Virus record (IMG/VR): IMGVR_UViG_3300033559_000068
Location: 1-29,513 of that record
Strand: one strand, 5' to 3'
From: a virus
Taxonomy: Duplodnaviria > Caudoviricetes
DNA length: 29,513 nucleotides
Position numbers and translations under genes: made by a program. How positions within the stretch are numbered: the first letter of the stretch is position 1; the number at the start of each line of letters is the position of its first letter. Below the pieces are notes generated by a model. The model searched no databases. It was not told the origin of the DNA and saw nothing but the letters and a program-made list of their open reading frames with translations. This document shows positions 1-25,243 of the stretch, in pieces.

Positions 1-22
1 CAAAAAAAGTTTGAAAAAATGC

Positions 23-51
23 TTGAATCGAAAAACGAAGACTGGTACAAG
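23..51 (+). promoter_or_regulatory. Candidate sigma70-type promoter for the early operon
   Basis: TTGAAT (23-28), 17-bp spacer, TG-n-TACAAG (43-51), with an A-tract-rich upstream segment; precedes the + strand gene run. Confidence 0.4.
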
Positions 52-120
52 CACTCTTATGAACGTGATTCCACACATGCAGATTTCAACTCAAGAAAAA
101 CCGGAGAAGAATCTACTATC

Positions 121-149
121 ACGTCGCATAATATATATTATTGTCAACT
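121..149. other. dif-like XerC/XerD recombination site
   Basis: ACGTCGCATAA-TATATA-TTATTGTCAACT resembles E. coli dif GGTGCGCATAA-TGTATA-TTATGTTAAAT; the XerD arm carries one extra T. Confidence 0.5.
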
Positions 150-267
150 GTTATGCGGGGGTGGGCACTAGGGGTTGTGGTTTTTATGGCTGGCTTGCGT
201 TTCTTGACACTATAATCGTTTGTGGCACAAAGGCTGTTTGCAACGCTTCCGAAAAGGGGGTGTTGTG

Positions 268-615
268 ATGGCTGTTTTTGCTAAATCTTTGTCGTCGTAT
301 TACCGGCAGTGTGCTACTGCCACTATTAACTTTGTCGCGGGTGAGTATTGCGCCCGGATCGCTACCGAGGACGGCTGGTACATTGAACCGCCGTCCTCTT
401 CTTTTTTGCCGGAGCTTATCCGGCAGATCCGTCTCTGGGCAGGAAATGATTATGACGTGGCGGTTATCGAGGATTTCGATAATGCCGGGCTGTCTCCAAG
501 GGGGATGCAGCGGGCGTCCAAGGCGAAGAATCCACGGCAGACGGTGCGGGAGATGCAGCGGCGGGATGATGCGGAGGCGCGGGCCAGGAGGGTGAAGGGG
601 GTGCAGAATGGATGA
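268..615 (+). CDS. Hypothetical phage early protein
   Basis: ORF 220..615; ATG at 268 follows GGGGGTGTTGTG; stop overlaps the next gene. Confidence 0.6.
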   Translation: MAVFAKSLSSYYRQCATATINFVAGEYCARIATEDGWYIEPPSSSFLPELIRQIRLWAGNDYDVAVIEDFDNAGLSPRGMQRASKAKNPRQTVREMQRRDDAEARARRVKGVQNG

Positions 616-814
616 TTTGAAGGCGAGGCGGCGCAGGGCGTTTAGGATGCGGTTGGCGGAACTGGGCATTTCGGGGAGCGAGGCGGCGACGCTGGCGGGG
701 CTGTCGAAGTCGTATTTCTCGCAGATTCAAAACGGGGTGTATGCGTGTTCGGATAAATGCGCACAGCGGGTGGCGGAGGTGTTGCAGAAGGAGCGGTCGG
801 AGTTGTTTATCTAG
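608..814 (+). CDS. Cro/XRE-family helix-turn-helix regulator
   Basis: 68 aa; LAELGISGSEAATLAGLSKSYFSQIQNG fits the XRE HTH pattern; second gene of the early operon. Confidence 0.8.
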   Translation: MDDLKARRRRAFRMRLAELGISGSEAATLAGLSKSYFSQIQNGVYACSDKCAQRVAEVLQKERSELFI

Positions 815-830
815 GCTGACGAGGGGAGAT

Positions 831-854
831 GGCGGACACGAGGCCCGCCCGTAC
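831..854. repeat. REP-like palindrome family B (GGCGGACACGAGGCCCGCCCSTAC)
   Basis: Near-identical copies at 1679-1702 and 10529-10552; variants at 2450-2473 and 14910-14934. Confidence 0.75.
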
Positions 855-871
855 AAAGAAGGGGGTGTGTG

Positions 872-1114
872 ATGAATGCGGGTGAAATGGCGGCAGTGGT
901 GAACGAGTTGTTTGACACGGAGATGAAGGGCATTTCGGGGTTGCGGTCGGCTGCTTACCGGAAGGGGTTTTTCCAGGGGCTTCTTTCGGTGGCGGATTCC
1001 GAGGACTTCTGTTGTCCGTTGGCGATGGGGTCCGCCAAGGCGGATGCGTGGTCCTTCGGGTTCTGGGATGGGCAGCGGTCTATGAAGATTGATATGACCA
1101 CGCGCGGGCTCTAG
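872..1114 (+). CDS. Hypothetical protein
   Basis: ORF 869..1114; preceded by AAGAAGGGGGTGTGTGATG. Confidence 0.65.
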   Translation: MNAGEMAAVVNELFDTEMKGISGLRSAAYRKGFFQGLLSVADSEDFCCPLAMGSAKADAWSFGFWDGQRSMKIDMTTRGL

Positions 1115-1138
1115 TGGTGGGCGAGGGGGCGAGGGGAT

Positions 1139-1161
1139 GGCGAAAGATTTTTCGCCCTTAC
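1139..1161. repeat. REP-like palindrome family A (GGGCGAAAGATTTTTCGCCCTTAC)
   Basis: One of 8 copies in the window. Confidence 0.8.
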
Positions 1162-1176
1162 GAATGGGGGTGTGTG

Positions 1177-1443
1177 ATGGATTTGCGGCTGGTGGTGATT
1201 GAGTTGGCTTTGTCGGCCCCGGCTGCCCGGCTGGAGGCGGCGCGGCGGGCGTTGAGGCGGGATGCGCAGGCTCCGGGGGTCACTGTGACGGTGGCGGAGG
1301 CGGCGCGGATCCTGGGGGTGAGTCGGGAGACGTGCTACCGGTATCTGGAGCGGGGCCTGCTTTCGCGGGTGCCTGCCACGAATCGGTTGCGGCGGTCGCA
1401 GGTGCTGGCTCTGGCCGGGGATGGCGGGAAGGGGGCGGAATGA
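1177..1443 (+). CDS. Excisionase-like (HTH_17/MerR-type) DNA-binding protein
   Basis: VTVAEAARILGVSRETCYRYLERGLL motif; start reassigned to ATG 1177 after the GGGGGTGTGTG module. Confidence 0.75.
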   Translation: MDLRLVVIELALSAPAARLEAARRALRRDAQAPGVTVTVAEAARILGVSRETCYRYLERGLLSRVPATNRLRRSQVLALAGDGGKGAE

Positions 1444-1718
1444 TCTCGGCGAAGGCTGCTCGGGGGTTGGTGGAGGATGTGCGGCGTTTGCGGGGGATGT
1501 TGGAGGATGCCAGGGAGGAGGCGTTGCTTATGGAGGTGATGCTTGAGGTGGCGGTGAGCAAGTACCGGGAGAAGACGGCGGCGACCCGGCGGAAGGCTTG
1601 GGTGACGCGGCGGCGTAAGGCGGCTGAACGGGCGGCTTTGCAGCCGGGGTTGGTGGGGCTGGTGGCGGAGAAGGAAGGGGCGGACACGAGGCCCGCCCGT
1701 ACTGCGGGAGGTGTGTGA
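1440..1718 (+). CDS. Hypothetical protein
   Basis: ATGA overlap with the upstream stop; in frame with ORF 1332..1718. Confidence 0.6.
   Translation: MISAKAARGLVEDVRRLRGMLEDAREEALLMEVMLEVAVSKYREKTAATRRKAWVTRRRKAAERAALQPGLVGLVAEKEGADTRPARTAGGV
1679..1702. repeat. REP-like palindrome family B
   Basis: GGCGGACACGAGGCCCGCCCGTAC, identical to 831-854. Confidence 0.75.
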
Positions 1719-2008
1719 TGGTGCGGCAGTTGGACATTGATTGGGATGTGTGTGCGCGGAAGTCTCGGGGGAATGCGGAGAGGGCCGAGGCGAACGCGAA
1801 GGCGGCTGGGGGCAAGCGGGATGCGCGGCTGGCTGTGCTGGCGTTGATCCGGCAGGCGCAGGGCGAGGGGATGACGTGCAAGGAGGTGGCCGCGCGGTTG
1901 GGCAAGTGGATGAATGCGGTGTCGGGGCGGTTCTCGGAGTTGAAGGCTCTGGGGATTGTCCGGCAGGCGGGGCGGCGCGAGGGTTGCGGGGTGTATGTGG
2001 GTGTGTAG
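1715..2008 (+). CDS. Winged-helix DNA-binding protein
   Basis: GMTCKEVAARLGKWMNAVSGRFSELKALGIV wHTH pattern. Confidence 0.7.
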   Translation: MMVRQLDIDWDVCARKSRGNAERAEANAKAAGGKRDARLAVLALIRQAQGEGMTCKEVAARLGKWMNAVSGRFSELKALGIVRQAGRREGCGVYVGV

Positions 2009-2014
2009 GGGAAG

Positions 2015-2038
2015 GGGCGAAAGATTTTTCGCCCATAC
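2015..2038. repeat. REP-like palindrome family A
   Basis: GGGCGAAAGATTTTTCGCCCATAC, intergenic. Confidence 0.8.
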
Positions 2039-2061
2039 AAAGAAGGAAAGGTGTGTGTGTG

Positions 2062-2370
2062 ATGGCGGCTAATGTGAAGTTGGGGTTCTTTGGGCGGATT
2101 AAGAAGGCGTTTGTGTTGGGGTCGCGGGAGTATCGGCGGCTGGCGGCGATCTGTGACGGGGAGATTGTGGCGATGGGCAGGCTGCGGCGGGATCTGGAGG
2201 CGCGGGAAGCGGAGCTTGTGCATTTGCGGGGCTTGCTGGATGAGGCGGACAAGCTGCTGGCGGGGGATGTGGGGGAGGTGTGCGAGTTGCTGGATGCCGG
2301 TTGTGAGTTGCGGGATGCGCGGCGGGACAAGGATGATTTAGGGAGGGCCATGGGCTATGTGTACTGTTAG
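2062..2370 (+). CDS. Hypothetical coiled-coil protein
   Basis: 3' part of ORF 1741..2370; ATG 2062 follows AAGGAAAGGTGTGTGTGTG. Confidence 0.6.
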   Translation: MAANVKLGFFGRIKKAFVLGSREYRRLAAICDGEIVAMGRLRRDLEAREAELVHLRGLLDEADKLLAGDVGEVCELLDAGCELRDARRDKDDLGRAMGYVYC

Positions 2371-2449
2371 GCGGTGGTCGGTGGGGCGGCGGGAGCGGCC
2401 GGGGATTCTGCTGCTGGGGTGGTTGCGGCGGGTGGCGGGGAGAAAGGCG

Positions 2450-2473
2450 GGGCGGGCTGCTGCCCGCCCGTAC
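2450..2473. repeat. REP-like palindrome, family B variant
   Basis: GGGCGGGC-TGCT-GCCCGCCC-GTAC followed by an RBS/start module. Confidence 0.6.
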
Positions 2474-2494
2474 AAAGGAGGAAAGGGGTGTGTG

Positions 2495-3031
2495 ATGGGG
2501 TGGTGTTATAGCTTTGATGAGGAGCGGTTCGAGGGGGAGTTTGATTCGGCGGCGGATGCGGCAGCAGAGGCGTTTGCTGTTGATGAAGATGCGTATAGGT
2601 GCTGGGTGGGCGATGTGGCGAAGCTGGAGGAGGTGATGGGGCCGCAATTTGTCGGGGATGAGGTGTGGAAGATGCTTTCGACACGGTGTTATGAGGAGGT
2701 GGGGGATTTCTACGATGGTTTCCGGCTGTCGAATGAGCAGCGGCGCGACCTGGGGATGCTGGTGCTTGCCTGGGTGGTGCGGGAAGGTGGCTTCAAGTGC
2801 TATGCCGTGAAAAATGTGCGGCGGGTGGTTTCGGCGCGTAGCGAGGCCTGCAAGCATTTGTGCAGCTTGTGCCGCAAGGACTTTGCCGTGTGTGACGCCA
2901 CGGTGAAGGTGTTCGGGGTTGATGTTGATTCGTGCGCCGTGGGTGAGGAGGCGGATGCGGTTGTGGGGTGTGATGGGTTTGTTCCCGGCTGGGACGGCGG
3001 GGCCGCTTTGGAGGCTGGGGAGGGGATTTGA
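2495..3031 (+). CDS. Hypothetical phage protein with Cys-rich C-terminal domain
   Basis: ATG 2495 in frame with ORF 2357..3031; WCYSFDEERFEGEFDS N-terminus; C-terminal Cys cluster. Confidence 0.7.
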   Translation: MGWCYSFDEERFEGEFDSAADAAAEAFAVDEDAYRCWVGDVAKLEEVMGPQFVGDEVWKMLSTRCYEEVGDFYDGFRLSNEQRRDLGMLVLAWVVREGGFKCYAVKNVRRVVSARSEACKHLCSLCRKDFAVCDATVKVFGVDVDSCAVGEEADAVVGCDGFVPGWDGGAALEAGEGI

Positions 3032-3042
3032 GCCGGGCTATT

Positions 3043-3067
3043 CCGGCGTGAACGCCGGGGGCAGGAC
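3043..3067. repeat. Palindromic repeat family C (CCGGCGTGAACGCCGGGGGCAGGAC)
   Basis: Exact copy at 6962-6986; degenerate copy at 4728-4752. Confidence 0.7.
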
Positions 3068-3079
3068 GGGGGGTGTGTG

Positions 3080-3127
3080 ATGCGGGTGATTGAGTGGGCG
3101 AACGCAGAAAGTGAGGCTTTGACATGA
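3080..3127 (+). CDS. 15-aa leader peptide reading into attC (MRVIEWANAESEALT)
   Basis: Starts at the phage GGGGGGTGTGTGATG module; its TGA overlaps ATG 3124 inside the attC site. Confidence 0.45.
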   Translation: MRVIEWANAESEALT

Positions 3128-3163
3128 GTGCAGCGAATGTCAATAGCCACTGCCTTGTTCGGT
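3097..3163 (-). mobile_element. attC site of cassette 4, with a 3-nt deletion in one arm
   Basis: Minus strand: ACCGAAC-AAGGC-AGT[G]GCT[A]TTGACAT...ATGTCAA-AGCCTC-ACT-TTCTGC-GTTCGCC. Confidence 0.75.
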
Positions 3164-3522
3164 TTTCTGATGACTGGCACAGGCTGGCGTTGTTGAAGAT
3201 GCGACAACTCCAAGACGATGGAATGACGTGTGCCGAGATCGTGCTGGAGCATCCTGTCAAAGGCACGGCGCACATTGATCGGTGGGGAAAGGTGACGTGG
3301 GACGATAAACAGGGGCATGAGGTAAAAAAAATTGAAGCGTATCAGCAGAGAGTGATTGAAGAGAAACAGGTGCTCGACGAGAAGATCGAGAAGCTGTCGG
3401 CGTTCATCGGCACCGAACGGTACTGTGCTTTGCCAGAAGCGGAGCAGGTGCGCATGGATAGGCAGTTGATCGCAATGGGCGAATACTCGGCCATCTTGGG
3501 TGAACGAATCGCCGCGTTTTGA
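3124..3522 (+). CDS. Cassette protein; C-terminal half resembles the crAss001_48-like small phage family
   Basis: YQQRVIEEKQVLDEKIEKLSAF...MGEYSAILGERIAAF recognised from memory; start codon lies inside the attC. Confidence 0.7.
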   Translation: MSAANVNSHCLVRFSDDWHRLALLKMRQLQDDGMTCAEIVLEHPVKGTAHIDRWGKVTWDDKQGHEVKKIEAYQQRVIEEKQVLDEKIEKLSAFIGTERYCALPEAEQVRMDRQLIAMGEYSAILGERIAAF

Positions 3523-3543
3523 ACAACGGGCCGGAAAGGAAAA

Positions 3544-3879
3544 ATGAGTGAGTTATTTAAACTGAAAAAAGAGCAGCGGCGGGCATTTCTGCGATTGAAA
3601 CGAGCACACGCGGATTGCCTGAACCTTGGTATTGAGTTCTACAACAACTATGGGTATGTCGGTGCTGTCGATCCGAAAAAATTCGAGAGGGATTTTTACA
3701 ACGACAAGCTTAGTCCGGGCGCAATTGAAGACGCGGGCCAAAACAGCGAGAACGAGTTTCGTCTAGAGTGCAGCGAATGGTGCGACGATATGCATTATTT
3801 TCATCCCAAACCCAACGCCCCCGCTGACCTTCCGGCGGTAGCCGATACGGCCCGGCGGGATGTTGGAGGTGCTCAATGA
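3544..3879 (+). CDS. Hypothetical cassette protein; C-terminus encoded by attC
   Basis: RBS AAAGGA; ends PNAPADLPAVADTARRDVGGAQ, the translation of attC 3810-3868. Confidence 0.75.
   Translation: MSELFKLKKEQRRAFLRLKRAHADCLNLGIEFYNNYGYVGAVDPKKFERDFYNDKLSPGAIEDAGQNSENEFRLECSEWCDDMHYFHPKPNAPADLPAVADTARRDVGGAQ
3810..3868 (-). mobile_element. attC site of cassette 3 (59 bp)
   Basis: Minus strand: CTCCAAC-ATCCC-GCC[G]GGCCGT[A]TCGGC-TACC-GCCGG-AAGGTC-AGC-GGGGGC-GTTGGGT; homologous to 4446-4504. Confidence 0.8.
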
Positions 3880-4085
3880 TTTTGGGGAGACAGGCCCGAG
3901 AGCCCGGAGTATCCGGGACGACCTACTGGATAGGCCGCGAAAGCGGTCGAAGGTGTGATGGCCCGAATGAGGGGCCGGACTGCTGCGCCTTGTGCGTGGT
4001 GCCAGAAGCGGACTCCGTGCAAATCGGATCATCGGGAAGTCTCCCCTCCAACACGGAGCGTCATGCTCCGAGCGGAGCGAGGTAG
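3876..4085 (+). CDS. Small hypothetical cassette protein
   Basis: ATGA coupling to the upstream gene; TAG stop inside attC 4046-4105. Confidence 0.5.
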   Translation: MILGRQAREPGVSGTTYWIGRESGRRCDGPNEGPDCCALCVVPEADSVQIGSSGSLPSNTERHAPSGAR

Positions 4086-4105
4086 CATGGACGCTTTTGT
4101 TGTGC
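4046..4105 (-). mobile_element. attC site of cassette 2 (60 bp), canonical
   Basis: Minus strand: GCACAAC-AAAAG-CGT[C]CATGCT[A]CC-TCGCTCCGCTC-GG-AGCATG-ACG-CTCCGT-GTTGGAG; extrahelical C and A at the canonical positions. Confidence 0.88.
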
Positions 4106-4716
4106 TTCGGATTCAGGACGCGGACGGGCGGGGGCCGTGGAAACCCGGTTTCTCGCGCCAGTGGGTTGAGGACAGGCCCGACCACGAGGACCTGCCGCCG
4201 TGGTTCGTGGAGTTCGGCCGCGTGGACAAGTTGGCGCTGGTGGGAGAGCACGTCGGAAGCGGATGCCGGACACTGGAACAACTGCGCCGGTGGTTCAGCC
4301 CGACCGAGTACGCGACGCTGCGCCGGTTCGGGTATCGGGCCGTGCGGATGGCGGTGGGGCGACTGCTGGCCGAGTCGGACAGGCAATGCTTCTTCGGGCG
4401 GGCGCGACCGCTGCGCGAAGACGTTGAGCCGGTGGAACTGTATGAGCACAACGCCCCTGCTGACCTTCCGGCGGTAGCCGGTAAGGTCCGGCGTGATGTT
4501 GGGCAGATCAACCCTGACGAACGCATTACCGTCGAGGGCGTGGAGATTTTGCGTTACACGGAGGGTTGCGATGGCACGATATTCGACCATGCAGCAGCAG
4601 GCGGACCGCCGACGCGATGTATCAGATGCGACCGATGGACATCTTTATCGCCGTATTGCCCACGATGCATTGCTGTTGATCTGAAACTGCCCAACAGTTT
4701 TATTGGACAGATTTGA
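4087..4716 (+). CDS. Two-cassette fusion protein (hypothetical domain, attC-encoded linker, CxxC..CxxC domain)
   Basis: ATG 4087 inside attC after GGAGCGAGG; reads through attC 4446-4504 (HNAPADLPAVAGKVRRDVGQ); CIRC...CPRC near the C-terminus. Confidence 0.7.
   Translation: MDAFVVLRIQDADGRGPWKPGFSRQWVEDRPDHEDLPPWFVEFGRVDKLALVGEHVGSGCRTLEQLRRWFSPTEYATLRRFGYRAVRMAVGRLLAESDRQCFFGRARPLREDVEPVELYEHNAPADLPAVAGKVRRDVGQINPDERITVEGVEILRYTEGCDGTIFDHAAAGGPPTRCIRCDRWTSLSPYCPRCIAVDLKLPNSFIGQI
4446..4504 (-). mobile_element. attC site of cassette 1 (59 bp)
   Basis: Minus strand: GCCCAAC-ATCAC-GCC[G]GACCTT[A]CCGGC-TACC-GCCGG-AAGGTC-AGC-AGGGGC-GTTGTGC; same geometry as attC(aadA7). Confidence 0.88.
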
Positions 4717-4727
4717 TCCATCTAATA
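4689..4727 (-). mobile_element. attI-like primary recombination site
   Basis: Minus strand ...CAAATCTGTCCAATAAAACTG|TTGGGC; AT-rich, no attC hairpin, at the head of the array; resembles the attI1 end CCCTAAAACAAAG|TT. Confidence 0.5.
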
Positions 4728-4744
4728 CCGCTGTGAACAGCGGC

Positions 4745-4778
4745 GGCAGGACGAGGTAAAGGGGGTGTGTGATGGCGG
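4745..4778 (+). repeat. 34-bp direct repeat, copy 1
   Basis: GGCAGGACGAGGTAAAGGGGGTGTGTGATGGCGG, identical at 5302-5335. Confidence 0.85.
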
Positions 4779-4849
4779 AGGGGCGGCAATGAAGGGCTTG
4801 TCTCAATAGGTGAGATAATTGAACGGGGTGTTTTGTGAGGGCAGCCAGG

Positions 4850-5001
4850 AGAAATCGCAAGCTGGTGAGAAAACGGGTGCCAAAAGAGGCCGCGCTGGAA
4901 ACGGCAGTAATCCCGACAGGTAAGCGGAGAAATCCGATGACTCGGCACCAATGCGGGGGTAGCGTCCCGCCCCTCACGTTTTCTACACCGCTTTGTTCGC
5001 A
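4850..5001 (-). mobile_element. Probable decayed long attC site
   Basis: Minus-strand start GCGAAC-AAAGC-GGTGTAGAAAACG matches + strand AAGCTGGTGAGAAAACG at about 4859-4875; the distal R box is disrupted. Confidence 0.4.
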
Positions 5002-5041
5002 GGAGCGTAAACATGAATGAGCAACAGTTAAATGATTATTT

Positions 5042-5329
5042 ATGACGGTATTAACGAATATCGAAGTGATGCCAATGGGGGATGGTCATGTTGTGCGGCT
5101 TATTGCTGAAAAGTCGGGCAAGAAATTGCGCATAGATATACCGATACCGTTTGGAATGATTTCAGACAAGTACCAGGTATTAGCGAAATTCAGGGATCTA
5201 TATGCGATGCATAACGCCAGCGTAAGCATTCCCCGGTCGACGAGCGGGGCTGGAGAAGCGCAAGGCGGCAATGCAGGAGCAAATGGCGTTGTTGTGAGGC
5301 GGGCAGGACGAGGTAAAGGGGGTGTGTGA
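5042..5329 (+). CDS. Hypothetical protein (AT-richer, cassette-like)
   Basis: 95-aa ORF; C-terminus HNASVSIPRS reads through an attC-like half-site at 5209. Confidence 0.6.
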   Translation: MTVLTNIEVMPMGDGHVVRLIAEKSGKKLRIDIPIPFGMISDKYQVLAKFRDLYAMHNASVSIPRSTSGAGEAQGGNAGANGVVVRRAGRGKGGV

Positions 5330-5335
5330 TGGCGG
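5302..5335 (+). repeat. 34-bp direct repeat, copy 2
   Basis: Identical to 4745-4778. Confidence 0.85.
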
Positions 5336-5538
5336 GGGAGTGTGTGGCGGATGCTAGGGGGCAGGTGTTGCGGTGTTTGGTTTGTGGCGAGGAGGTGCCT
5401 ATGCCGATGGGGATGGTGCGCTGGTTCGCGGGGGTGTGCCGGGCGTTTGAGTTGGCGCATAGGGGGTGTGACGGGCGCAAGGGGAAGACGGGGTTTGCGA
5501 AGTGCGCGGGGGGGGAGGGGAAGGGGGCGGAGTTATGA
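5326..5538 (+). CDS. Small Zn-finger-like hypothetical protein
   Basis: CLVCG...HRGC; start module present. Confidence 0.6.
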   Translation: MMAGECVADARGQVLRCLVCGEEVPMPMGMVRWFAGVCRAFELAHRGCDGRKGKTGFAKCAGGEGKGAEL

Positions 5539-5759
5539 GGCAGGTTGATTTCGAGCATGATGTTGGCGACGAGGTGATGATGGTGTTTGCCAGTGAGGTC
5601 ACGGGGCATGTGACGGCTCTTAAACTGGAGGCGTGCGGTCGGCAGTATCGCGTTGCATGGTGGCAGGACGGATGCAGGCGTGAGGATTGGCTGCTGGCGT
5701 GGGAGATCAAGGGGGCGAAGCCTGGTGCCAGTGTTGATTCAGTTGTGCTGGGCGAATGA
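5535..5759 (+). CDS. Hypothetical small protein (possibly SH3-like)
   Basis: ATGA coupling; FEHDVGDEV...YRVAWW; stop codon lies inside a family A repeat. Confidence 0.6.
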   Translation: MRQVDFEHDVGDEVMMVFASEVTGHVTALKLEACGRQYRVAWWQDGCRREDWLLAWEIKGAKPGASVDSVVLGE

Positions 5760-5773
5760 TTTTTCGCCCTTAC
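5750..5773. repeat. REP-like palindrome family A
   Basis: GGGCGAATGATTTTTCGCCCTTAC. Confidence 0.75.
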
Positions 5774-5786
5774 TACAAGGGGGTGT

Positions 5787-6905
5787 GTGATGGGGTTTGA
5801 TTCGGGGGCGGTTTCGTTTGTGATGGCGGGTTGTGAGATGGATGTGCGGGGGTTCCTGGCGAAGGCGGCTGGCGAGGTGGTGCCTGATATGGCGGCGGTT
5901 GCCTGTATGCCGGTGTTCGGCTGGGCCGGTCCTCGGCATTTGATGGACCGGGATGTGGGCGAGGGTAATTGTGTGGTGGATGGGCGGTTTGTGTGGATGA
6001 ACCGGGTGGCGGCGCAACGGGCGTTCCCGGCTTCGCGGATGCGGGCTGAAATCGCGCTTGAGGAGGCGGCGGAGATGGCGGCGCGGGGGGTGCGTTTCTT
6101 GCGCAAGGGGGAGCGTAAGGAGATCCGGGACGAGGTGGAGCTTCGTTTGCTGAAGGATGCGCCGGTGGGCTTGAAGGGGATTTCGTTTGTGTGTTGTGTG
6201 AAGGAGCGGGTTCTTTTTACGGATGCGACGAGCGATAACCGTTTTGACCGGCTGTATGGCGCGATGGTGCAGCGGGCTCGTGATGCTGACCTGGATTCGG
6301 TTCCCCCGGTGCAGATGGGGGCTTGGATGACGCCGGATATTGCGGCGCGGCGGATGGGGGTGCAGGTGGTGGATTTGAAACCGTTGGTGTTTTCGTTCCA
6401 CGCGATGCAGCCGGCGGAGATGTTTTCGTTTGCTCTGGGGCGGGAGTTCCTGACCTGGCTTTTGATGGTGGCGGAGGTGGGCTCTACGTTCGACGGCTGG
6501 GGGGTGTTCCTGGAGGGGCCGCTGGTGTTCGCTGGTGGCGTTGATGCGGTGGAGGTGACGGTGGATGCGGATTCGCCGACGGGGGCGGACGAGGCGCAGA
6601 GTGCGCTTGAGCATGGGCGGCTTTTGCGGTCGGCGCGGGTGCATCTGGCGCATGGCGAGGATGTTTTCTCGTTTGTGGTGGATGCGGATAACTGGGTGTT
6701 CCGGTGGACGGCGTTGAAGGTTGAGGACTCTGGGTTTGATGCGGGGGAACGGCTGGCGGCGCGGGTGGAGAAGCTGCTGTTGTTGCGGGAGGGGTGGCTG
6801 CTGCTGTTCAAGGTTTTTCTGGAGTTGCGGCGGGATCGGGCGGAGGAGTTGGCGAAGGCTGCGCAGGAGTGGTGCCTGGAGCGGGTGATGGCGAGGAAGG
6901 TGTAG
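5787..6905 (+). CDS. rdgC: RdgC-like recombination-associated protein
   Basis: 372 aa; FGW...ERKEIRDEVELRLL and LGREFLTWL...EGPLVF segments resemble RdgC-like proteins; typical early-region position. Confidence 0.65.
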   Translation: MMGFDSGAVSFVMAGCEMDVRGFLAKAAGEVVPDMAAVACMPVFGWAGPRHLMDRDVGEGNCVVDGRFVWMNRVAAQRAFPASRMRAEIALEEAAEMAARGVRFLRKGERKEIRDEVELRLLKDAPVGLKGISFVCCVKERVLFTDATSDNRFDRLYGAMVQRARDADLDSVPPVQMGAWMTPDIAARRMGVQVVDLKPLVFSFHAMQPAEMFSFALGREFLTWLLMVAEVGSTFDGWGVFLEGPLVFAGGVDAVEVTVDADSPTGADEAQSALEHGRLLRSARVHLAHGEDVFSFVVDADNWVFRWTALKVEDSGFDAGERLAARVEKLLLLREGWLLLFKVFLELRRDRAEELAKAAQEWCLERVMARKV

Positions 6906-6960
6906 AAGGCGTTTGGCGGCAAGGATGTGACGGTGACGGTGGTGAAGGGGTGAGGGGGTG

Positions 6961-6986
6961 CCCGGCGTGAACGCCGGGGGCAGGAC
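6961..6986. repeat. Palindromic repeat family C
   Basis: CCCGGCGTGAACGCCGGGGGCAGGAC. Confidence 0.7.
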
Positions 6987-7174
6987 TTGGGAGTGATTTT
7001 TTCTGTGGTGGCCGATGTCGAATGGCATTCGTCTTAAACCGACTGGCCGGGTGGTCAGTGCTGCTACAGAGAATTAAATCCGGGGGCGTGTGCTTCCGGT
7101 CGGTGTGGCGTGGCGGGCTGGATTTTCAACGACCCTCACCCGCTGCGCCATGCCGTGTGTTTCTGGAGGGGGGA

Positions 7175-7198
7175 GGGCGAAAGATTTTTCGCCCTTAC
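7175..7198. repeat. REP-like palindrome family A
   Basis: Exact consensus, immediately before the start module. Confidence 0.8.
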
Positions 7199-7210
7199 TG
7201 GGGGTGTGTG

Positions 7211-8065
7211 ATGCGGGCTACGGGTGAGCGAGTGGGGGCGGGGATGTGGTGGGATCGGGCTTGGTCGCTGGTTGAGGGGTGTGCCCAGGTTTCCACCGGG
7301 TGTGCGCATTGTTGGAGTGCGGCGGCTTCGGCTATGCGCTGCAAGCAGGGCGGGGCGGGCGGGGAGCGGTACGCGGGCCTTGTGGATGGCGAGGGGTTAT
7401 TTAATGGGGTTTCGCGGTTTATGGCGGGCGATCTGTCGAAACCTCTGTCGGTGCGCAAGGGGCAGGTGTGGGCGGTCTGGAATGATTTGTTTTATGAGCA
7501 TGTTGAGGATTGTGACATCGCGGCGGCTTTCGGGGTGATGGGGGCTTGTTCGCGGCATTTGTTTGTGGTGTGTACGAAGCGGGCGGATGTGATGCGTAAT
7601 TTTTTCGCGCGGTTTTCGCCTCCCCAGTGCCGGGCGGCGGCGCGGGAGCGGTTGGGGGGAGGCTTTTCGATGCGGGCGGATTCGCTTTTTGATTCGGTGC
7701 CCCGGTGGCCCCTCCCGAATGTGGTTTTGATGGTGAGCGCGGAGGATGCCCCGCGTGCGCGTGAGCGCGTGCCTTTCCTTATAGAGACGCCAGCGGCGTT
7801 CCGGGCGGTGTCTTGCGAGCCTCTTTTGGGGGCGGTTGACCTGGGCGAATGGATCGGGCGGCTGGATTGGGTGATTGCGGGTTGCGAGAGCGGGTGGAAC
7901 CGGCGGTTTTCGCGGGTGGAGTGGTTCGAGTCGCTGCGGGACCAGTGTGCGGCGGCAGGCACGGCCTTCTTCCTTAAACAGATTGAGGTGGGGATGAAGG
8001 TGTGGCCGATGCCGAGGCTGGCCGGGCGGTTCCATGATGATTTTCCGAGTGTGCGCCGTGGGTGA
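7211..8065 (+). CDS. Phage Gp37/Gp68 (DUF5131) family protein
   Basis: GCAQVSTGCAHCW, DLFYE, TKR, WPLPNV, SCEPLLG, WVIAGCESG and FFLKQ motifs; start reassigned to ATG 7211. Confidence 0.9.
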   Translation: MRATGERVGAGMWWDRAWSLVEGCAQVSTGCAHCWSAAASAMRCKQGGAGGERYAGLVDGEGLFNGVSRFMAGDLSKPLSVRKGQVWAVWNDLFYEHVEDCDIAAAFGVMGACSRHLFVVCTKRADVMRNFFARFSPPQCRAAARERLGGGFSMRADSLFDSVPRWPLPNVVLMVSAEDAPRARERVPFLIETPAAFRAVSCEPLLGAVDLGEWIGRLDWVIAGCESGWNRRFSRVEWFESLRDQCAAAGTAFFLKQIEVGMKVWPMPRLAGRFHDDFPSVRRG

Positions 8066-9173
8066 TAATCAGTATAAGGGGTGGCATTTTTACCTTTTCG
8101 ACCACACTTGGCTGTTCGGGCATCCGACGTACCGGCTGATGGATATTGTTGACAAGGGGGTTTTGTTCGAGCTGGTGAATCAGGCTGCGCAGTCTCGGCA
8201 GGAGGCCGGGATTGATGACGGGTGTATCTCGGTGGGGACTGCAACCCGCGCGAAGAAGGCGCAGGTTGCGAAGTGGCTGGGGGAGACCAAGGGGCTTACG
8301 GCCCGGTCGGCGTTGGCCTCCCTGGAGCGGCTGGCCGAGGCGGGGCTTATCGTGATCCGGCGTAGCGGGGTGGTGTGTCTGGCGCGGTGGGCGGAGATGC
8401 AGGTGGCGGCTCCGAGTGATGAGGCCGCGAGGAAGCGCAAGAGCCGGGAGTCGCGGGCGATGGATTTGTTTTTGCAGGTGCTGGGCGATAAGCGCAACGA
8501 GTATGTGGCGCGTGAGTATATTGAAATGAGGCTGAAACAGTGCGTATCTGGCGGTTCAATTTTTGCCAAGAAGTTTTTGGAGCGTTCCGTCGCCCAGGGC
8601 TTTTTGCGAAAGGTGGACGAGGATTCGTTCTTTGTCGAGGTGGTTGGTCATGCAGGCGGCTTGTCCGTAAGTCACTGCAAGCGCGTGGATTCCGATTCCA
8701 CGGCCAGGGATTCCGGCTCCCTGCCTCCCCCTTCGATTTCGAGCTTCGAGGGAGTGACTAGCCACACGTCGGAACGTGTGACTAGTCACCATATCGAAAT
8801 CGAAAAGGATATGAATATATCATCGAAACATCGGAATGTTTCTTCGAGCGTTCCGAGGATTTCGAGCGGGGGAGGCAGGGAGCCGGAATCCCAATGCTGT
8901 TCGGTCAGCAGGGAGGAGGTCTTTTCTCGTCCACCGCTGGATGTGGCGGATTCGCTGGTGGGGTTCCGGGGGGCGTATGACCGCAACGGCTTTGCGGCGA
9001 AGCTGCGGGAATTGCAGGGGGCGTTCGGCGAGCATGAGGGGACGGCGAAGTTCCGGCAGGCGATGGAGTCGCTGCGGAGTGATTTGAGCGAGCCGAGGTG
9101 TCCGATTCGGATGCCGGAGCGGGTTTTGCACTCGAAGCTGAATAAGTTTCTGGAGGGGGCTGGGAAGGGGTGA
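8058..9173 (+). CDS. Phage replication initiator / replisome organizer-like protein
   Basis: N-terminal wHTH-like region ending WAEMQ...AARKRKSRE; repeat-containing linker VTSHTSERVTSHHIEIEKD; GTG start overlapping the upstream stop. Confidence 0.65.
   Translation: MGDNQYKGWHFYLFDHTWLFGHPTYRLMDIVDKGVLFELVNQAAQSRQEAGIDDGCISVGTATRAKKAQVAKWLGETKGLTARSALASLERLAEAGLIVIRRSGVVCLARWAEMQVAAPSDEAARKRKSRESRAMDLFLQVLGDKRNEYVAREYIEMRLKQCVSGGSIFAKKFLERSVAQGFLRKVDEDSFFVEVVGHAGGLSVSHCKRVDSDSTARDSGSLPPPSISSFEGVTSHTSERVTSHHIEIEKDMNISSKHRNVSSSVPRISSGGGREPESQCCSVSREEVFSRPPLDVADSLVGFRGAYDRNGFAAKLRELQGAFGEHEGTAKFRQAMESLRSDLSEPRCPIRMPERVLHSKLNKFLEGAGKG
8707..8892. other. Putative replication origin inside the initiator gene
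   Basis: Perfect 25-bp inverted repeat (8707-8731 / 8868-8892) enclosing GTGACTAGCCAC, GTGACTAGTCAC and an AT-rich stretch. Confidence 0.6.
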
Positions 9174-9194
9174 AGGACTGGGCTTGAACTGGGC

Positions 9195-9218
9195 GGGCGA
9201 AAGATTTTTCGCCCTTAC
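9195..9218. repeat. REP-like palindrome family A
   Basis: Exact consensus, intergenic. Confidence 0.8.
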
Positions 9219-9237
9219 GGAAGGGGGGTGTGTGGTG

Positions 9238-9555
9238 ATGGTGCGGATTACGGAGCGGTTGGTGGCGGAGGAGGCGGCGGTTGAGGCGGTGCGGGTGTGC
9301 CCGAAGTGCCGGAGGGCGATCTACCGGGGGGCGGCGGACCATGCCGAGGGGTGCCTGGCGCGGGCTACGGTGCTGGCGCGGTTTGAGCCGTCGTGTTGCG
9401 GCGGGGGTGTGTGCATGACGAATCTGGAGTGGTGCCAGACGCTGGCGGCGGAGCTTTCGGCGTGTGGGATTGTGGCAGCGGTGCGGCGTGAGTCCGCTCT
9501 TTGCTGGGTGAATCGGGAAGTGGCGCGGGGGGTGAAAGGGGAGGTGGACGAGTAA
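9238..9555 (+). CDS. Hypothetical protein with CxxC motif
   Basis: ATG 9238 after the start module; TAATG coupling to the next gene. Confidence 0.55.
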   Translation: MVRITERLVAEEAAVEAVRVCPKCRRAIYRGAADHAEGCLARATVLARFEPSCCGGGVCMTNLEWCQTLAAELSACGIVAAVRRESALCWVNREVARGVKGEVDE

Positions 9556-10583
9556 TGAAGTGTTTTTATCATCGTGGGGATTTTGACGGGAAGTGTGCGG
9601 GGGCGATTGTGAAGCTGCGGCATCCCAGGTGCGAGATGATCGGGCTGGAGTATGGGGAGCCGTTTCCGTGGGATCTAGTGCAGCCGTTTGGAGGCGTTGT
9701 CGGTTCGGGGCCATCGGGAAACAGTGCAATCAACGAGGCTTGCAAACAAACGGTTGTGATGGTGGATTTCTCGCTACAGCCCTTCGAGGATATGATACGG
9801 CTGGCGAAAATGACAAAGCTGACGTGGATCGACCACCACAAGACGGCCATCGAGGAGCGCAACCGGGCGATGGCGGTGAATTCGTTTGTTCGCGAGGCTC
9901 CGCCAATGGAGTCGTTTATTCCGCTGTTTGCACGGGGCGTGCAGGAGGTCGGGCAGGCGGCGTGTGAGTTGACGTTCCGGTATTTGTGCCCTGGCATGGA
10001 GATGCCGGTGGCGGTGCGGCTTTTGGGCCGGTATGATGTGTGGGACATCCAGAATGCGGCGGTGCTGGCCTTCCAGTACGGGATGCGGGCGCAAGGCGAG
10101 TGGCACCCTTCCGATGTGACGGCCTGGCAGATGCTGTTCGATGATCCTGGGATGGTGCGGGACATTATCGAGAAGGGCTCGGCGGTGCTGGATTATGAGC
10201 GGGCGCAGAGTGCGGCGTATATGCGGGAGTTTGGTTTTGTGGGGGACATTCTACCGCCGAAGAGTATGTTGAAAATCACGGCTCTGTGTGTGAATCTAGG
10301 GCGAGTGTCGAGCATGACATTTTCCAGTGCTGATCCCTCGGTTTTGCTGTTTTGCGGATATGCGCAGTTGCCGGATGGGCGGTGGCGGGTGAGTCTGCGG
10401 CGAACGGATGGGTCAACGGTTGATTGCGGGGCGATTGCCAAGGCGTTCGGGGGCGGGGGCCATGCCGGGGCGGCTGGGTTTGTGGCTGATGATCTGGATT
10501 GGATGCAGCGAGTGGACGCGGGGGAGATGGCGGACACGAGGCCCGCCCCTACTGCCGCTATGTGCAAGGAGGTGGTGGCATGA
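9555..10583 (+). CDS. DHH-family phosphoesterase (DHH/DHHA1)
   Basis: HRGDFDG, VDFS, IDHHKT and GGGGHAGAAGF motifs. Confidence 0.9.
   Translation: MKCFYHRGDFDGKCAGAIVKLRHPRCEMIGLEYGEPFPWDLVQPFGGVVGSGPSGNSAINEACKQTVVMVDFSLQPFEDMIRLAKMTKLTWIDHHKTAIEERNRAMAVNSFVREAPPMESFIPLFARGVQEVGQAACELTFRYLCPGMEMPVAVRLLGRYDVWDIQNAAVLAFQYGMRAQGEWHPSDVTAWQMLFDDPGMVRDIIEKGSAVLDYERAQSAAYMREFGFVGDILPPKSMLKITALCVNLGRVSSMTFSSADPSVLLFCGYAQLPDGRWRVSLRRTDGSTVDCGAIAKAFGGGGHAGAAGFVADDLDWMQRVDAGEMADTRPAPTAAMCKEVVA
10529..10552. repeat. REP-like palindrome family B in the 3' end of the DHH gene
   Basis: GGGGAGATGGCGGACACGAGGCCCGCCC shared with 823-850. Confidence 0.75.
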
Positions 10584-11248
10584 AGGGGGGATTTCCTAAG
10601 CAGCCCACGCCTCTGCGTGGGGGCGCGGCGCGGGAACCGCTACCCGTGCGAGCGCGTGCAGGCGCGAAAGCAGACTCCAAAGCAGGGGCGGCTAAGGTGG
10701 CGGCCTCTCGCCCGAAGAAAGTGCCGCAATCTGTCGGTGCGTTCGCGGGGGAGGCGGGGCGTCCAACGGCTTATTCTGCCCGCGTTCGGGACGCGATCTG
10801 CCAGGCGGTGACCGAGGGGAAGCATTGGCGGCAGATTGAGCGGGAGGGGCTCGCTACGCAGTATGAGCTTGCGACCTGGCTGCGGACTATCCCCGAGTTC
10901 CATGAGCATTATTCGCGTGCCAGGGAGGCGCGGGCGGAATCGCTGGTGGCGGAGATTGACGAGATTCTGGATGAACTGAAGAACGGATCCAAGGCGCAAT
11001 GGGATGATCCGTTGGTACAGCAGGCGTATCAGTCGTTCTGGCTTGCCTCTGCGCGGATGCGGCTTGATACGTTGAGGTGGCAGGTCTCGTGCTATTTCCC
11101 GAAGTGCTACGGGACGAAGGTGCAGGTTGAGGCGCGGCATGAGGCGGCGAGCGCGGTGCAGTATGATTATTCGAGACTGTCGCTCTCGCAGGCTAAGAAG
11201 CTGCGTGAATTGATGGAGATTTGCAGGGTGAAGCATGAAACGGACTGA
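10580..11248 (+). CDS. terS: Terminase small subunit (Sf6 gp1-like)
   Basis: GRPTAYS...ICQAVTEG, YSRARE, RLDTLRW...PKCYG; directly upstream of terL; RBS AAGGAGG. Confidence 0.8.
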   Translation: MKGGFPKQPTPLRGGAAREPLPVRARAGAKADSKAGAAKVAASRPKKVPQSVGAFAGEAGRPTAYSARVRDAICQAVTEGKHWRQIEREGLATQYELATWLRTIPEFHEHYSRAREARAESLVAEIDEILDELKNGSKAQWDDPLVQQAYQSFWLASARMRLDTLRWQVSCYFPKCYGTKVQVEARHEAASAVQYDYSRLSLSQAKKLRELMEICRVKHETD

Positions 11249-12779
11249 CGCCCTTGCTCAAATGCCGGATCTGGACATGGATAGTGTGCTGGCTTCGATC
11301 TGCCAGCGCGATTTCTATGAGTTTGTGCGGATGTTCTGGGGCGTGGTGGTGAAGGAGCCCGCCGTGTGGAACTGGCATATCCGGTTTTTGTGCGACGAGT
11401 TGCAGGCGGCGGCGGAGCGGGTTATTCGGCGAGAACCGAAGGCGTATGACCTGCTGATCAATGTGCCGCCGGGATCGAGTAAGAGTACGATCTGTTCGCA
11501 GATGTTCCCGGCCTGGTGCTGGATTAGTGATCCGACGCTTAGGTTCATCGGGGCTTCCTATGCCCATGAGGTTGCGCTTGAGCAGGCGGAGTATCAGCGG
11601 ACCATTGTGCAGAGCGAGCTTTATCAGCGGCTGTTCCCCCAGGTGCGGATGCACGCTTCGCGGAATGCGAGGCACAATTACCGGACGACGGCGGGCGGCC
11701 AGCGGTATTCGGTGGGCACGGGGGGCAGTGTGACGGGTGTTCATGCGCATATTCTTTTGCCGGATGATCCGATCAACCCGAAGGAGGCGAGCAGCAAGGT
11801 TGACTTGCGGACGGCGAACCGGTGGATGTCTGAAACGCTTTCCTCGCGCAAGGTGGACCGGGCGATTTCGCTGACGATCATGATTATGCAGCGGCTTGAC
11901 GATAATGACCCTTCCGGCTACTGGCAGCGGACCCGGCCAGGGGAAATCCGGCATATCTGTCTGCCCGCAGAGGAAAGCAATGACATTCGCCCCATTGAAC
12001 TGCGCTCGATGTACAAGGACGGGCTGATGGATCCGGTGCGTATGTCGCGGCGCGTGCTGGAATCGGCAAAGCTGGAACTGGGTTCGTTCGGGTATTCGGG
12101 GCAGATGATGCAGCGGCCTGTCCCGGAGGAGGGCGGCATCCTGAAGAAGGGCTGGTTCAAGTGTGTCTCGATGGATGATGTGCTGGGGCTGGCGCGTCAG
12201 TGGTTGCCGGGGGCGGTGGCGTGGAGCTTCGCGGCGGACCTGGCTTATACGGCCAAGGAGATCAACGACCCGAGCGGAATCATCGCCTATGGCCGGATCG
12301 GGCCGTATGTGGTGATCCGCAACGCGGCGCGGTTCCGGCTGGAGCAACCGGAGCTTGAACGGCGGCTTCCGGTGTGGACGATGGAGAACGGCTATTCGGA
12401 GCGGTCCCTGCTGGTGATTGAACCGAAGGCGAACGGGCTTTCGACGGTGCAGAACCTACGGGCACGTACCAAGCTGAATGTGATCGCGGGGAAGGCTCCG
12501 ACGAAGGACAAGGTTTCGCGGATCCGGGATGCGGCCCCGCTGATCGAATCCGGGCGGGTGCTGCTGGTAGATGGGGACTGGGTGGAGATGTTCCTGGACG
12601 AGGTTTGCACGTTCCCCTTTGCGACGCATGACGAGTTCCCGGACTGTCTCTCGATTGCGCTGGACCGGGAAAGCCGGGCAGGGCTTGGCGGGGAATCGAT
12701 TGAGCGCGGTGTTGACGGTTTTGGCGAGCGCACAACGCCCCAGCGCAATGCTGCGGATGTGTGGGGCGCGTTGGTGTAG
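11235..12779 (+). CDS. terL: Terminase large subunit
   Basis: Walker A INVPPGSSKST, Walker B ILLPDDP, IMQRL, nuclease motifs IEPKANG and HDEFPD. Confidence 0.95.
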   Translation: MKRTDALAQMPDLDMDSVLASICQRDFYEFVRMFWGVVVKEPAVWNWHIRFLCDELQAAAERVIRREPKAYDLLINVPPGSSKSTICSQMFPAWCWISDPTLRFIGASYAHEVALEQAEYQRTIVQSELYQRLFPQVRMHASRNARHNYRTTAGGQRYSVGTGGSVTGVHAHILLPDDPINPKEASSKVDLRTANRWMSETLSSRKVDRAISLTIMIMQRLDDNDPSGYWQRTRPGEIRHICLPAEESNDIRPIELRSMYKDGLMDPVRMSRRVLESAKLELGSFGYSGQMMQRPVPEEGGILKKGWFKCVSMDDVLGLARQWLPGAVAWSFAADLAYTAKEINDPSGIIAYGRIGPYVVIRNAARFRLEQPELERRLPVWTMENGYSERSLLVIEPKANGLSTVQNLRARTKLNVIAGKAPTKDKVSRIRDAAPLIESGRVLLVDGDWVEMFLDEVCTFPFATHDEFPDCLSIALDRESRAGLGGESIERGVDGFGERTTPQRNAADVWGALV

Positions 12780-12893
12780 CCTTTTACAAGCGGCTATACT
12801 GTAGCGGCTTGTGACGTTTTTTTTATTTTCTTACCCTATTTCCATAGATTTCCCGTTTTTTGGCGTCATATTCTGGTCTCACGGAGGACCATT
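12780..12893 (+). promoter_or_regulatory. T-rich intergenic region, likely a late promoter or terminator zone
   Basis: Marked AT/T-rich gap between terL and portal; RBS GGAGG before GTG 12894; no clean consensus promoter seen. Confidence 0.35.
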
Positions 12894-24900: not shown

Positions 24901-25243
24901 TAACTACCGCCTATATAACGATGGAAAATTAGCACACACCCTTGTGGCGTCTTTAAACATAGCCTCTCTCCCGCCTAGGCAAGTGTATATTACAAGGCGG
25001 CCTGAGCCTGATGGCAAGACGGCTACAGCCAAACAGGGGCCGTCCTTCTTCTATTCCCGCGCAATGTCAGCGTCTGAGCTTGCAGCGATACACTCGCAAG
25101 GACCAACGTATATCCACCCTGCTGATGCTGACCTTATGGCGGCGTACTACTTATCGGAAGGCAGCGGGACAAACACTGTCAATAGCGTCAATGGTCTGTC
25201 GTCTGGGCAGATTTTAGGTGGGGCTACATGGGGATCGCTTTAA
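21968..25243 (+). CDS. Large mosaic adhesin/tail-fibre-like protein: signal peptide, coiled coil, BspA-type LRR (LRR_5), C-terminal LamG/ConA-like domain
   Basis: IxxxAFxxCxxLxxVxxP repeats at about 23340-23790; ATAEQGALADTALQ; WHMIACVF...LYNDGK and FYSRAMSASEL LamG-like motifs. Confidence 0.75.
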   Translation: MMNKIVCNAVVAACVMLLGGLLCLVVNAAQQQLPAEPDIAWSDFIAAVGSRDPMNANHVLEYYTWAIRQDNAWFEQCVAISVDNRFDAWSTNGVSAQTNMTEFVAQYEAFKLEVNASIRQTDSNVSVNNGRVQVLRYDVNQLQNDVTDTRNSVQQLMTETMDSQNALMQMLEQRVNELAARDISIGTDVCRMIDQLRRRHTSAFNFVNARIDELTNSPLSSVVEAGTNATFLSVASAVDQIVSTNGMTVSTNAGQTRYTVTLDHTALPYPVVSGTGSLVKVVATPGEEDTQPTTYEVGLDPSVLEMNAELPLIAVPASTNAADAWKFSLSLDTNWLASVPTNVTSPVQVAGTAGATVTPSEITVNGSTGTLYTVSVSTGWLGGWIGTNIVDDVGVESVSVDGTNPIYVVDGGGADNPTFMVGFNTNWLAAYLSGGYLLSAVDSMDLGVLPDGTAVLNNPAGISPALVIPSVINGVAVTEIPDGFLELNQTITSVSGANIINISASAFSGCENLVSVSFPNARTVGADAFRRCFNLATVDLPEATVIGASCFFDNAVLSSVNIPAVKTLGSYAFSSCSSLKSIALPSVTSIGEGAFLNCWILDEVLWGATNAPAEQSSTFAGGWPGGSNYVTNPTATGWGTTFGGKPVVRLPYALQAPLTVQGTNVMDRFAGLAVSSVVATQVWDRAQYPLALTNAAAFATAEQGALADTALQAETDTLQTITDRGATTTNTITAGAYYVGSTNIGAYATTAYGWGNHATNGYALTSDNSVTWPAAVNVAGPTWTIDYTNLMQRVNFTGTITNMVFQTLTNAQKRLVEVWISNAKSNTYSPDGLWVREPSWTKQNVHAVISWSLGGVSASMDKEMSLDGPTQAGYINVTSDATGLLWSTNGMNGMYADNTYTLITWFNATEFASGNVLMEMRRVGAGADGYDFYTYGTSGSNLLLCWRPFGDALGVAGTFTNLLNGSWHMIACVFNDASNYRLYNDGKLAHTLVASLNIASLPPRQVYITRRPEPDGKTATAKQGPSFFYSRAMSASELAAIHSQGPTYIHPADADLMAAYYLSEGSGTNTVNSVNGLSSGQILGGATWGSL

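Follow-up and report, generated by a model that had tools for sequence, protein, structure and literature searches.

Inverted attC cassettes without an integrase in a Caudoviricetes phage contig, and the reading frames that enter their sites

The virus record IMGVR_UViG_3300033559_000068 (Caudoviricetes; completeness ~43%) was analysed over its whole 29.5 kb (positions 1 to 29,513, hereafter the window), with emphasis on positions 3080 to 4735, where hairpins earlier proposed to be integron attC sites alternate with small open reading frames (ORFs). This stretch is probably a four-cassette array of inverted attC sites, with no integrase in the contig, in which shuffling, likely by a host integrase, swaps short C-terminal tails of the cassette genes and would keep the coupling between stop and start codons; fusions between cassettes are likely a by-product. 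The inverted register of the sites, the complementary cassette ends, the presence of the same gene with different tails, the frame bias and the rarity of fusions were demonstrated at sequence level. The swapping of tails and the supply of stop codons by the sites are well supported, and the fusion of domains is real in the DNA but rare, the fused protein being predicted. The elements of the array are the following:

3080..3127, plus strand: frame of the 15-amino-acid leader; starts at a GGGGGTGTGTGATG motif, enters site 1 at the in-frame AAC 3101-3103, and its stop overlaps ATG 3124 (ATGA)
3097..3163, minus strand: site 1, attC-type, with degenerate L boxes; contains the start codon of ORF 3124; putative crossover 3102/3103; RNA fold z -2.5
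3103..3815, minus strand: cassette A, site 1 plus ORFs 3124 and 3544; end boxes 6/7
3124..3522, plus strand: ORF 3124, 132 amino acids, its first residues from site 1
3544..3879, plus strand: ORF 3544, 111 amino acids, without its own stop; reads through site 2; ATGA overlap with ORF 3876
3810..3868, minus strand: site 2, attC-type, stop-free in the AAC frame; AAC to GTT 51 nucleotides; putative crossover 3815/3816
3816..4051, minus strand: cassette B, site 2 plus ORF 3876; end boxes 7/7
3876..4085, plus strand: ORF 3876, 69 amino acids, weak coding status; TAG 4083-4085 supplied by site 3
4046..4105, minus strand: site 3, attC-type, with a perfect L-box register and extra base C; putative crossover 4051/4052
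4052..4451, minus strand: cassette C, site 3 plus a T4 Y00F-like domain (PF26820); end boxes 7/7
4087..4716, plus strand: ORF 4087, a frame of 209 amino acids with the Y00F-like domain, a 17-residue linker encoded by site 4, a zinc-ribbon domain and a tail from the terminal site
4446..4504, minus strand: site 4, attC-type, same family as site 2, stop-free in frame; putative crossover 4451/4452
4452..4694, minus strand: cassette D, site 4 plus a CxxC..CxxC domain with no ATG ahead of it; end boxes 7/7
4689..4735, minus strand: terminal site at AAC 4693, lacking a closing GTT; source of the last 6 codons and the stop of ORF 4087

An attC site is built of a core, 5 bases, an 8-base L'' box with an extra base, a 7-base L' box, 5-6 bases and a second core. 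When the four sites were scored in this register on both strands, the minus strand scored above the plus strand at 4046 (7.0 vs 5.5), at 4446 (6.5 vs 4.0), by a weak margin at 3810 (5.5 vs 4.5) and, in degenerate form, at 3097 (4.5 vs 3.0). The palindrome R''-L''-L'-R', with its AAC/GTT cores and the extra L'' base, was clear at 4046 and 4446 and weak at 3810, all on the minus strand. Folding of the hairpins compared with shuffled sequences gave z scores of -2.5 to -3.4 as RNA and of -1.7 to -3.6 as DNA over both strands. Both the scoring and a strict detector of sites were home-made, and the detector made no call in 144,683 bases of shuffled sequence. These folds above chance, the register and the clean shuffled DNA agree with the original prediction that the hairpins are attC sites. 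It is extremely improbable that they are phage RNA or repetitive extragenic palindromic (REP)-like elements and that the variation of the gene tails described below comes from homologous recombination between repeats. Such an explanation would fit the other palindromic repeats found 5' of genes in this phage, the good RNA folds and the lack of IntI in the contig, but it does not account for the register with its extra L'' base, for the end complementarity across cassettes, for tails switching exactly at AAC between sites of unrelated sequence or for the presence of the same site family inside canonical cassette arrays.

In a canonical integron cassette the top strand carries the gene, which precedes its own attC. 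A different layout was found here, the genes being on the bottom strand and 3' of their own site. With sites on the minus strand and genes on the plus strand, the genes occupy the bottom strand of the sites, the top-strand G^TT corresponds to AA^C on the gene strand, and each cassette consists of a site followed by its gene. The boxes at the two ends of a cassette (7 bases after the site vs the box before the next site) were complementary at 7/7 positions in three of the four cassettes and at 6/7 in the other, and the match of the last one points to a fifth, terminal site at AAC 4693. Neither the inverted orientation nor this terminal site was part of the original prediction. With four sites within 1.4 kb and no integrase in 29.5 kb, the array is of the type known as CALIN, an attC cluster without integrase.

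The frames that cross the sites were confirmed as first described. The leader ends inside site 1, overlapping by ATGA the start of ORF 3124, in which residues 71-130 form a crAss001_48-related domain (PF21825, E 3.9e-18; phrog_774). ORF 3544, for which no Pfam or PHROG family match was obtained, crosses site 2 and is coupled by ATGA to ORF 3876, its last 22 residues being those of site 2 and the leader of cassette B. ORF 3876 stops inside site 3; its region had a negative composition score in all six frames, and no usable Atlas match was found for it. The stem of site 3 contains TAG 4083, a Shine-Dalgarno-like stretch (GGAG/GAGG) and ATG 4087, with one base between TAG and ATG, and in the predicted hairpin (RNA fold z -3.4) ATG 4087 is paired. 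ORF 4087 is open through site 4 and joins two cassettes in one frame. It shares the peptide NAPADLPAVA..RRDVG with ORF 3544, as had been noted, a consequence of the 91% identity of the two sites over 54 nucleotides. Likewise, a site similar to site 1 is read through in frame in the protein P0001. Translation of these frames across the sites is predicted from their being open. ORF 3955, a frame of 253 amino acids that spans three cassettes, was discarded, since every near-identical homologue begins at the 4087 position.

The same cassettes were then found with other neighbours. The seven closest versions of the cassette C protein (P0003, P0004, P0005 and P0133-P0136) start like the window protein and carry seven different tails of 8-23 residues, six of which begin with Asn. 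Counting the window copy, the head was of the same type in 8/8 near-identical copies, all 8 tails differed, and only the window copy was fused (1/8). The body of cassette B recurs in P0139 with another tail, the divergence falling exactly at Asn; one gene is present twice in locus L027 with two different tails; and loci L057 and L163 differ by a further tail swap with a fixed head. These breakpoints were placed at the core at protein level for the P-records and at DNA level in L027. As heads are constant and tails variable, the crossover would be fixed at AAC. Of the original proposal that both ends of cassette ORFs come from neighbouring att sites, the C-terminal part thus stands, the same cassette having different tails, and the N-terminal part is rejected: in the inverted layout the site 5' of a gene belongs to its own cassette, so reordering gives no new N-termini. 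In addition, downstream genes had no frame preference at GTT (32/31/25 and 17/26/18 in two samples of viral arrays), and the idea that they are frame-locked there failed in both.

The expectation that cassette domains occur with different partners was borne out, since both halves of ORF 4087 were found alone or in other company, and its homologues are not always colinear and full-length. The Y00F-like domain is present in 8 viral loci (6 distinct genes) as an ordinary gene, mostly of ~120 amino acids, with no site at the gene ends, and the cassette version is trimmed a few codons inside both natural ends of that gene. Among the best 120 of 179 homologues of this domain, 117 had a locatable end and 81 a tail of at least 3 residues; Asn occupied the third tail position in 24/81 and any other position in at most 3, a count that partly reflects shared descent. 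The zinc-ribbon domain belongs to a small family with four invariant cysteines and 81-102 amino acids when standing alone, and no viral locus was found for it. P0001, known at protein level, has a zinc-ribbon cassette 88% identical to that of the window, with Met where the window has Gln, fused downstream to a different domain through a linker of the site 1 type. The window's linker also lies between other domains in P0002 and, twice, in P0127, both of which were retrieved by querying with the linker.

The family of sites 2 and 4 was present in 14 metagenome loci among the matches listed, 4 of them being the window's own phage at >=99% identity. All 10 of its distinct contexts keep the site in frame and free of stops between AAC and GTT, and a stop followed 2-11 codons after GTT in 9, overlapping a possible start codon in 6 of these; site 4446 was the only one that continued into a domain. 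Genes of L026, L027, L030, L033 and L037 are oriented as in the window and enter the site at an in-frame AAC. L024/L031 and L036 are canonical arrays, and in each of them the one cassette with the window's site family carries a small inverted gene (L024:737-925, the same cassette in L031, and L036:2255-2445, in loci oriented with the search pattern on the plus strand). The contig with the L024 junction occurs in sequencing runs X2-X4, which also contain the window. Scans of viral sequences with the patterns of the window's own site families gave no match; a separate set of 15 matches was due to chance, with no site at the match position; the genome scan returned 4 loci, comprising one array (L040), one lone candidate site (L041) and two without a site at the match; and only chance matches were obtained in cultured phages.

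A pattern from another site family, taken from L027, gave 122 viral loci from 22 of 64 collection parts, and a third pattern gave 8. On these viral loci the strict detector identified 185 distinct sites, and an amino-acid score trained on genes of the window and of phage TJE1 assigned strand and frame to 135 genes, leaving 50 sites uncalled. The genes were inverted in 122 of the 135 cases called on viral contigs. The chromosomal array L040, from Opitutaceae, was canonical at 7/7 called sites of 8. End boxes of neighbouring cassettes in the viral loci matched perfectly in 54/79 pairs, vs 5.5 with shuffled partners and 13/79 within a site.

After clustering to 118 genes, the frame was compared with a null matched on the preceding bases and on the codon usage of 214 genes from the same loci. 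Site read-ins were in the AAC=Asn frame in 47/51 cases vs 27.4-28.7 expected, a result reached in 0 of 500,000 simulations, and in two subsamples the counts were 33/37 and 21/23. Codon usage alone places AAC in frame 43-65% of the time in phage genes and therefore accounts for the bias in part only. Of the genes in the two remaining frames 64/68 stopped before or at the site, and of the in-frame genes 49/54 read in. These 49 read-ins ended inside the site in 42 cases and within 60 bases after it in 5; one ran further on and one was fused (on a looser count, 2/33 were fused). The original prediction had sites depleted of stops on the gene strand. In fact in-frame stops are enriched, being present in 127/168 distinct site bodies vs 102.7 +/- 5.1 after shuffling (100 and 84 in the other frames), although these bodies are related and the 168 counts are not independent. 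Start codons inside a site were seen in 3/88 and 5/61 cases, which makes them a family-specific trait.

These counts bear on whether the array is a neutral relic, namely cassettes captured from a host integron or another phage and now decaying, with read-through and overlaps due to chance in GC-rich sites and to codon usage. The degenerate sites at 3097 and 4689, the poor score of ORF 3876, the loss in cassette D of the start that P0001 has, an allele lacking the array whose 3069-4825 joint is off any crossover point, and the frequency with which codon usage already puts AAC in frame would all suit a relic. Nevertheless, the frame bias exceeds the codon-usage null, in-frame and other-frame genes behave differently at the site, stop-start overlaps occur at 6/9 stops of the window's site family, and the reading frames of the array are intact in L028 and L035. 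A relic is accordingly considered quite unlikely.

The original prediction went further and proposed a recombinase-driven system of domain shuffling; stop-free sites would then be under selection as linkers, and cassettes lacking a start would serve as protein modules. Fusions do recur (window, P0001, P0002, P0127 and L046), the window's site family is stop-free in all its contexts, cassette D keeps its four cysteines with no start of its own, and designed attC linkers work as peptide linkers (PMC7439510). Frequency argues against it. Fusion concerned 1/49 in-frame read-ins, 1/10 contexts of the window's site family and one of the eight cassette C copies; a search that was weak in itself gave one homologue above 210 amino acids among 960 candidates, and its N-terminal extension was unrelated. 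The enrichment of in-frame stops and the lack of frame preference downstream point the same way, and each fusion protein is a singleton cluster or comes from a single phage, P0002 and P0127 moreover having been reached through the linker query. Fusion as the purpose of the array is thus unlikely.

Nor was a recombinase to drive such a system found, as no tyrosine recombinase was detected in the window contig with PF00589. Tyrosine recombinases were also missing from 42/49 sampled records and from 7/9 near-complete ones, and none of 7 recombinase fragments from the sampled phages, scanned as fragments only, reached the IntI cut-off. In the genome that carries the canonical array L040, two IntI matches, counted anywhere in it, exceeded the cut-off. 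The simplest source of the recombinase is likely a host IntI acting in trans, judging from these gene contents and from the single inverted cassettes with the window's site family in the canonical arrays L024/L031 and L036. Beside the array of the provirus record L118, an IntI-like fragment (L118:3024-3329) has 39% identity over 102 amino acids.

The ends of the arrays were studied through the partner of the last cassette's box. This search yielded 36 candidates, in many of which TAG lies nine bases after AAC. In a count that began from the motif, the 94,678 bases downstream of arrays contained AAC-N6-TAGRC 17 times and the 101,260 bases upstream once; the opposite strands of both sides combined gave one copy. 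The 17 copies are spread over 17 loci within L045-L119, and 10 of them match the start box of the last cassette 7/7. Of the genes upstream of these half-sites, 7 read in, all of them in frame, 8 stop earlier, one is on the other strand and one was uncalled; no closing GTT was found near the best inverted copy in 14/16. A few copies have an inverted GTCTA downstream. We infer that the array-end half-sites may be attI-like entry sites. The terminal site of the window is a variant of this motif with a stop six codons on, and it is a candidate primary (attI-like) site or a decayed attC. In contigs of runs X3-X6 different upstream DNA is joined to it. Contigs of X3, X5 and X6 join 3069 to 4825 with 7 shared bases, skipping the whole array; the short side of the joint is 30, 51 and 21 bases, respectively, and the joint is not at a recombination core. 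It may come from a related phage or a repeat.

Several data weigh against the reading of the array as inverted cassettes that exchange tails through a host integrase. As the contig is ~43% complete, the phage may encode a recombinase of its own. Cassette A matches at 6/7 end-box positions only, and its site 3097 is degenerate; the terminal site is off-motif, with an 8-base spacer and TGGAC, and folds into a hairpin (z -3.6). Within the cassette C cluster, P0136 has Thr in place of Asn at the junction. L028 and L035 have the cassettes in the order of the window, and the contigs of 7 runs showed no joint at a crossover point. With a chance rate of 80% for capture-type AAC in frame, against a measured 43-65%, the frame test would weaken to P = 0.016. 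Strand and frame calls rest on a crude amino-acid score, with translation predicted, and the sites were sampled by pattern from related families, so the stop enrichment does not come from independent units. Finally, the sites of TJE1 (L042:248-289 and 1020-1071) are in canonical orientation, yet orf1 and orf2 enter AAC in frame and stop inside the site. Inversion alone therefore does not explain the frame, and because canonical sites have in-frame entry too, the frame rule may stem from the making of cassettes and not from selection acting later.

We still favour the exchange of tails, which could proceed as follows. Each cassette would be a recombination site followed by a small phage gene, and a gene lacking a stop would run into the following site with AAC read as Asn, the gene strand being exchanged at AA^C. 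The terminal half-site, which closes the array on its 3' side, would admit new cassettes, and its in-frame stop would end the newest gene; a stop-less gene would be retained mainly when the entry site and the sites met later provide in-frame, prompt stops. A site and its leader would together form a portable 5' module, closing the preceding gene and coupling it to the one that follows. Such coupling would matter since the predicted mRNA hairpin has ATG 4087 in a paired position and would hide the start until a terminating ribosome re-initiates. A fusion would arise when a leader without an in-frame stop comes after a stop-free site, and cassette D, having no start here, would be expressed only by read-through from cassette C. 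It is conceivable, though rather unlikely, that phages keep an integrase-less inverted integron of their own, with an attI-like entry site bearing an in-frame stop, trimmed phage genes as cassettes and site families serving as terminators, couplers and stop-free linkers, and that a borrowed host integrase builds expressed and selected multi-domain proteins and passes cassettes to host integrons.

Parts of this picture are in print. Phage CALINs, attC clusters without integrase, have been reported, and in that work IntI1 recombined 5 of the 6 assayed sites with attI1 (Qi et al., 2023; PMC9892861); the window array is alike in this, whereas the available parts of that report give no rule of genes antisense to sites, in-frame read-in or fusion. 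ORF-11, ORF-17 and ORF-18 of attI1 and short ORFs in attC are coupling frames (review PMC8876359): as here, a frame spans the crossover point, is ended by a stop in the cassette that comes in and links translation to the gene that follows, but attI1 provides a short platform leader for top-strand genes, whereas in the window the cargo genes themselves do so, on the bottom strand and at every junction. The gcuF1-blaOXA-28 fusion (Hocquet et al., 2012; PMC3375312) is a natural protein across a cassette boundary that excision undoes, a single case in a canonical class 1 integron, whereas intact sites are crossed in a fixed frame in the window; most other fused class 1 cassettes arise by loss of attC (PMC8876359). 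Synthetic attC linkers (Nivina et al., 2020; PMC7439510) encode working peptide linkers and still recombine. They are a laboratory design of which the window would be a natural counterpart. For insertion targets with a GTT core and no full hairpin, Shewanella attI (quoted in PMC9892861) and attG (10.1101/2022.09.11.507474) are precedents, and the terminal site of the window resembles the A-rich end of the former as quoted there. The array-end motif differs from what these sources give for attI and attG in being kept across unrelated phages, mostly with no intI in the record, and in its in-frame stop on the gene strand. Among titles and abstract openings, with most subscription journals outside the search, no published description of inverted, in-frame phage cassettes or of the array-end motif was found, and we regard the conserved, attI-like half-site with its in-frame TAG as new.

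As for its setting, the array lies among early genes. Terminase, portal and capsid genes extend from ~10.5 kb onward, and small helix-turn-helix, RdgC-like and DUF5131 genes precede them. The GC skew was 0.16-0.24 across the array vs 0.42-0.49 on both flanks; the native early genes of positions 1-9000 have a very strong G-rich coding-strand skew (up to 0.49), absent from the cassette block. Sequencing runs containing the array are labelled as microbial mat metagenomes. The GGGGGTGTGTGATG start motif occurs 9 times in the window. Three families of short palindromes, which we take to be REP-like, lie in 831-14930 and 26035-27520, most of the early copies just 5' of a GGGGGTGTGTG(A/G)TG start motif (9 in the window):

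Starts at 2015, 5750, 7175, 9195 and 27498
Starts at 26035 and 26948
Starts at 831, 1679, 10529 and 14911
Starts at 3043, 4728 and 6962

These palindromes flank the array on both sides and may be exchange points between related phages. Just downstream, a 37-bp direct repeat (4745-4781 and 5302-5338) encloses 4782-5301; L035 has a 24-base insertion at its second copy, and an X6 contig has 131 other bases between 4753 and 5244. ORF 5042-5329 enters AAC 5213 in frame and crosses the site-like start of the stretch 5209-5294. This stretch was rejected as a full site (register scores 2.5/2.0, fold z -0.9), and the 5042-5329 region is possibly a broken fifth cassette. The promoter scan was at chance level (1 found vs 1.1 expected), as was the terminator scan, and Rfam gave 0 matches in positions 1-10000. 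Amid the structural genes, 21956-25243 encodes a protein of 1095 amino acids, of which residues 502-602 form BspA-type leucine-rich repeats.

In the textbook layout of an integron cassette the gene comes first and its site after it, and a platform promoter drives expression. The array described here suggests that phages use integron sites in reverse within operons of their own, and that a reading-frame rule applies at the crossover. To our knowledge, how integron cassettes are first made is an open question; it becomes testable here, since the Y00F-like gene occurs in two states, an ordinary phage gene and a trimmed cassette. The inverted, phage-type cassettes inside canonical arrays point to a route of exchange between phages and hosts, and the array-end half-site offers a concrete target for assays and for finding further arrays of this kind. 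A natural machine for domain shuffling is not supported by the frequency of fusions, but those present in the DNA could seed new proteins.

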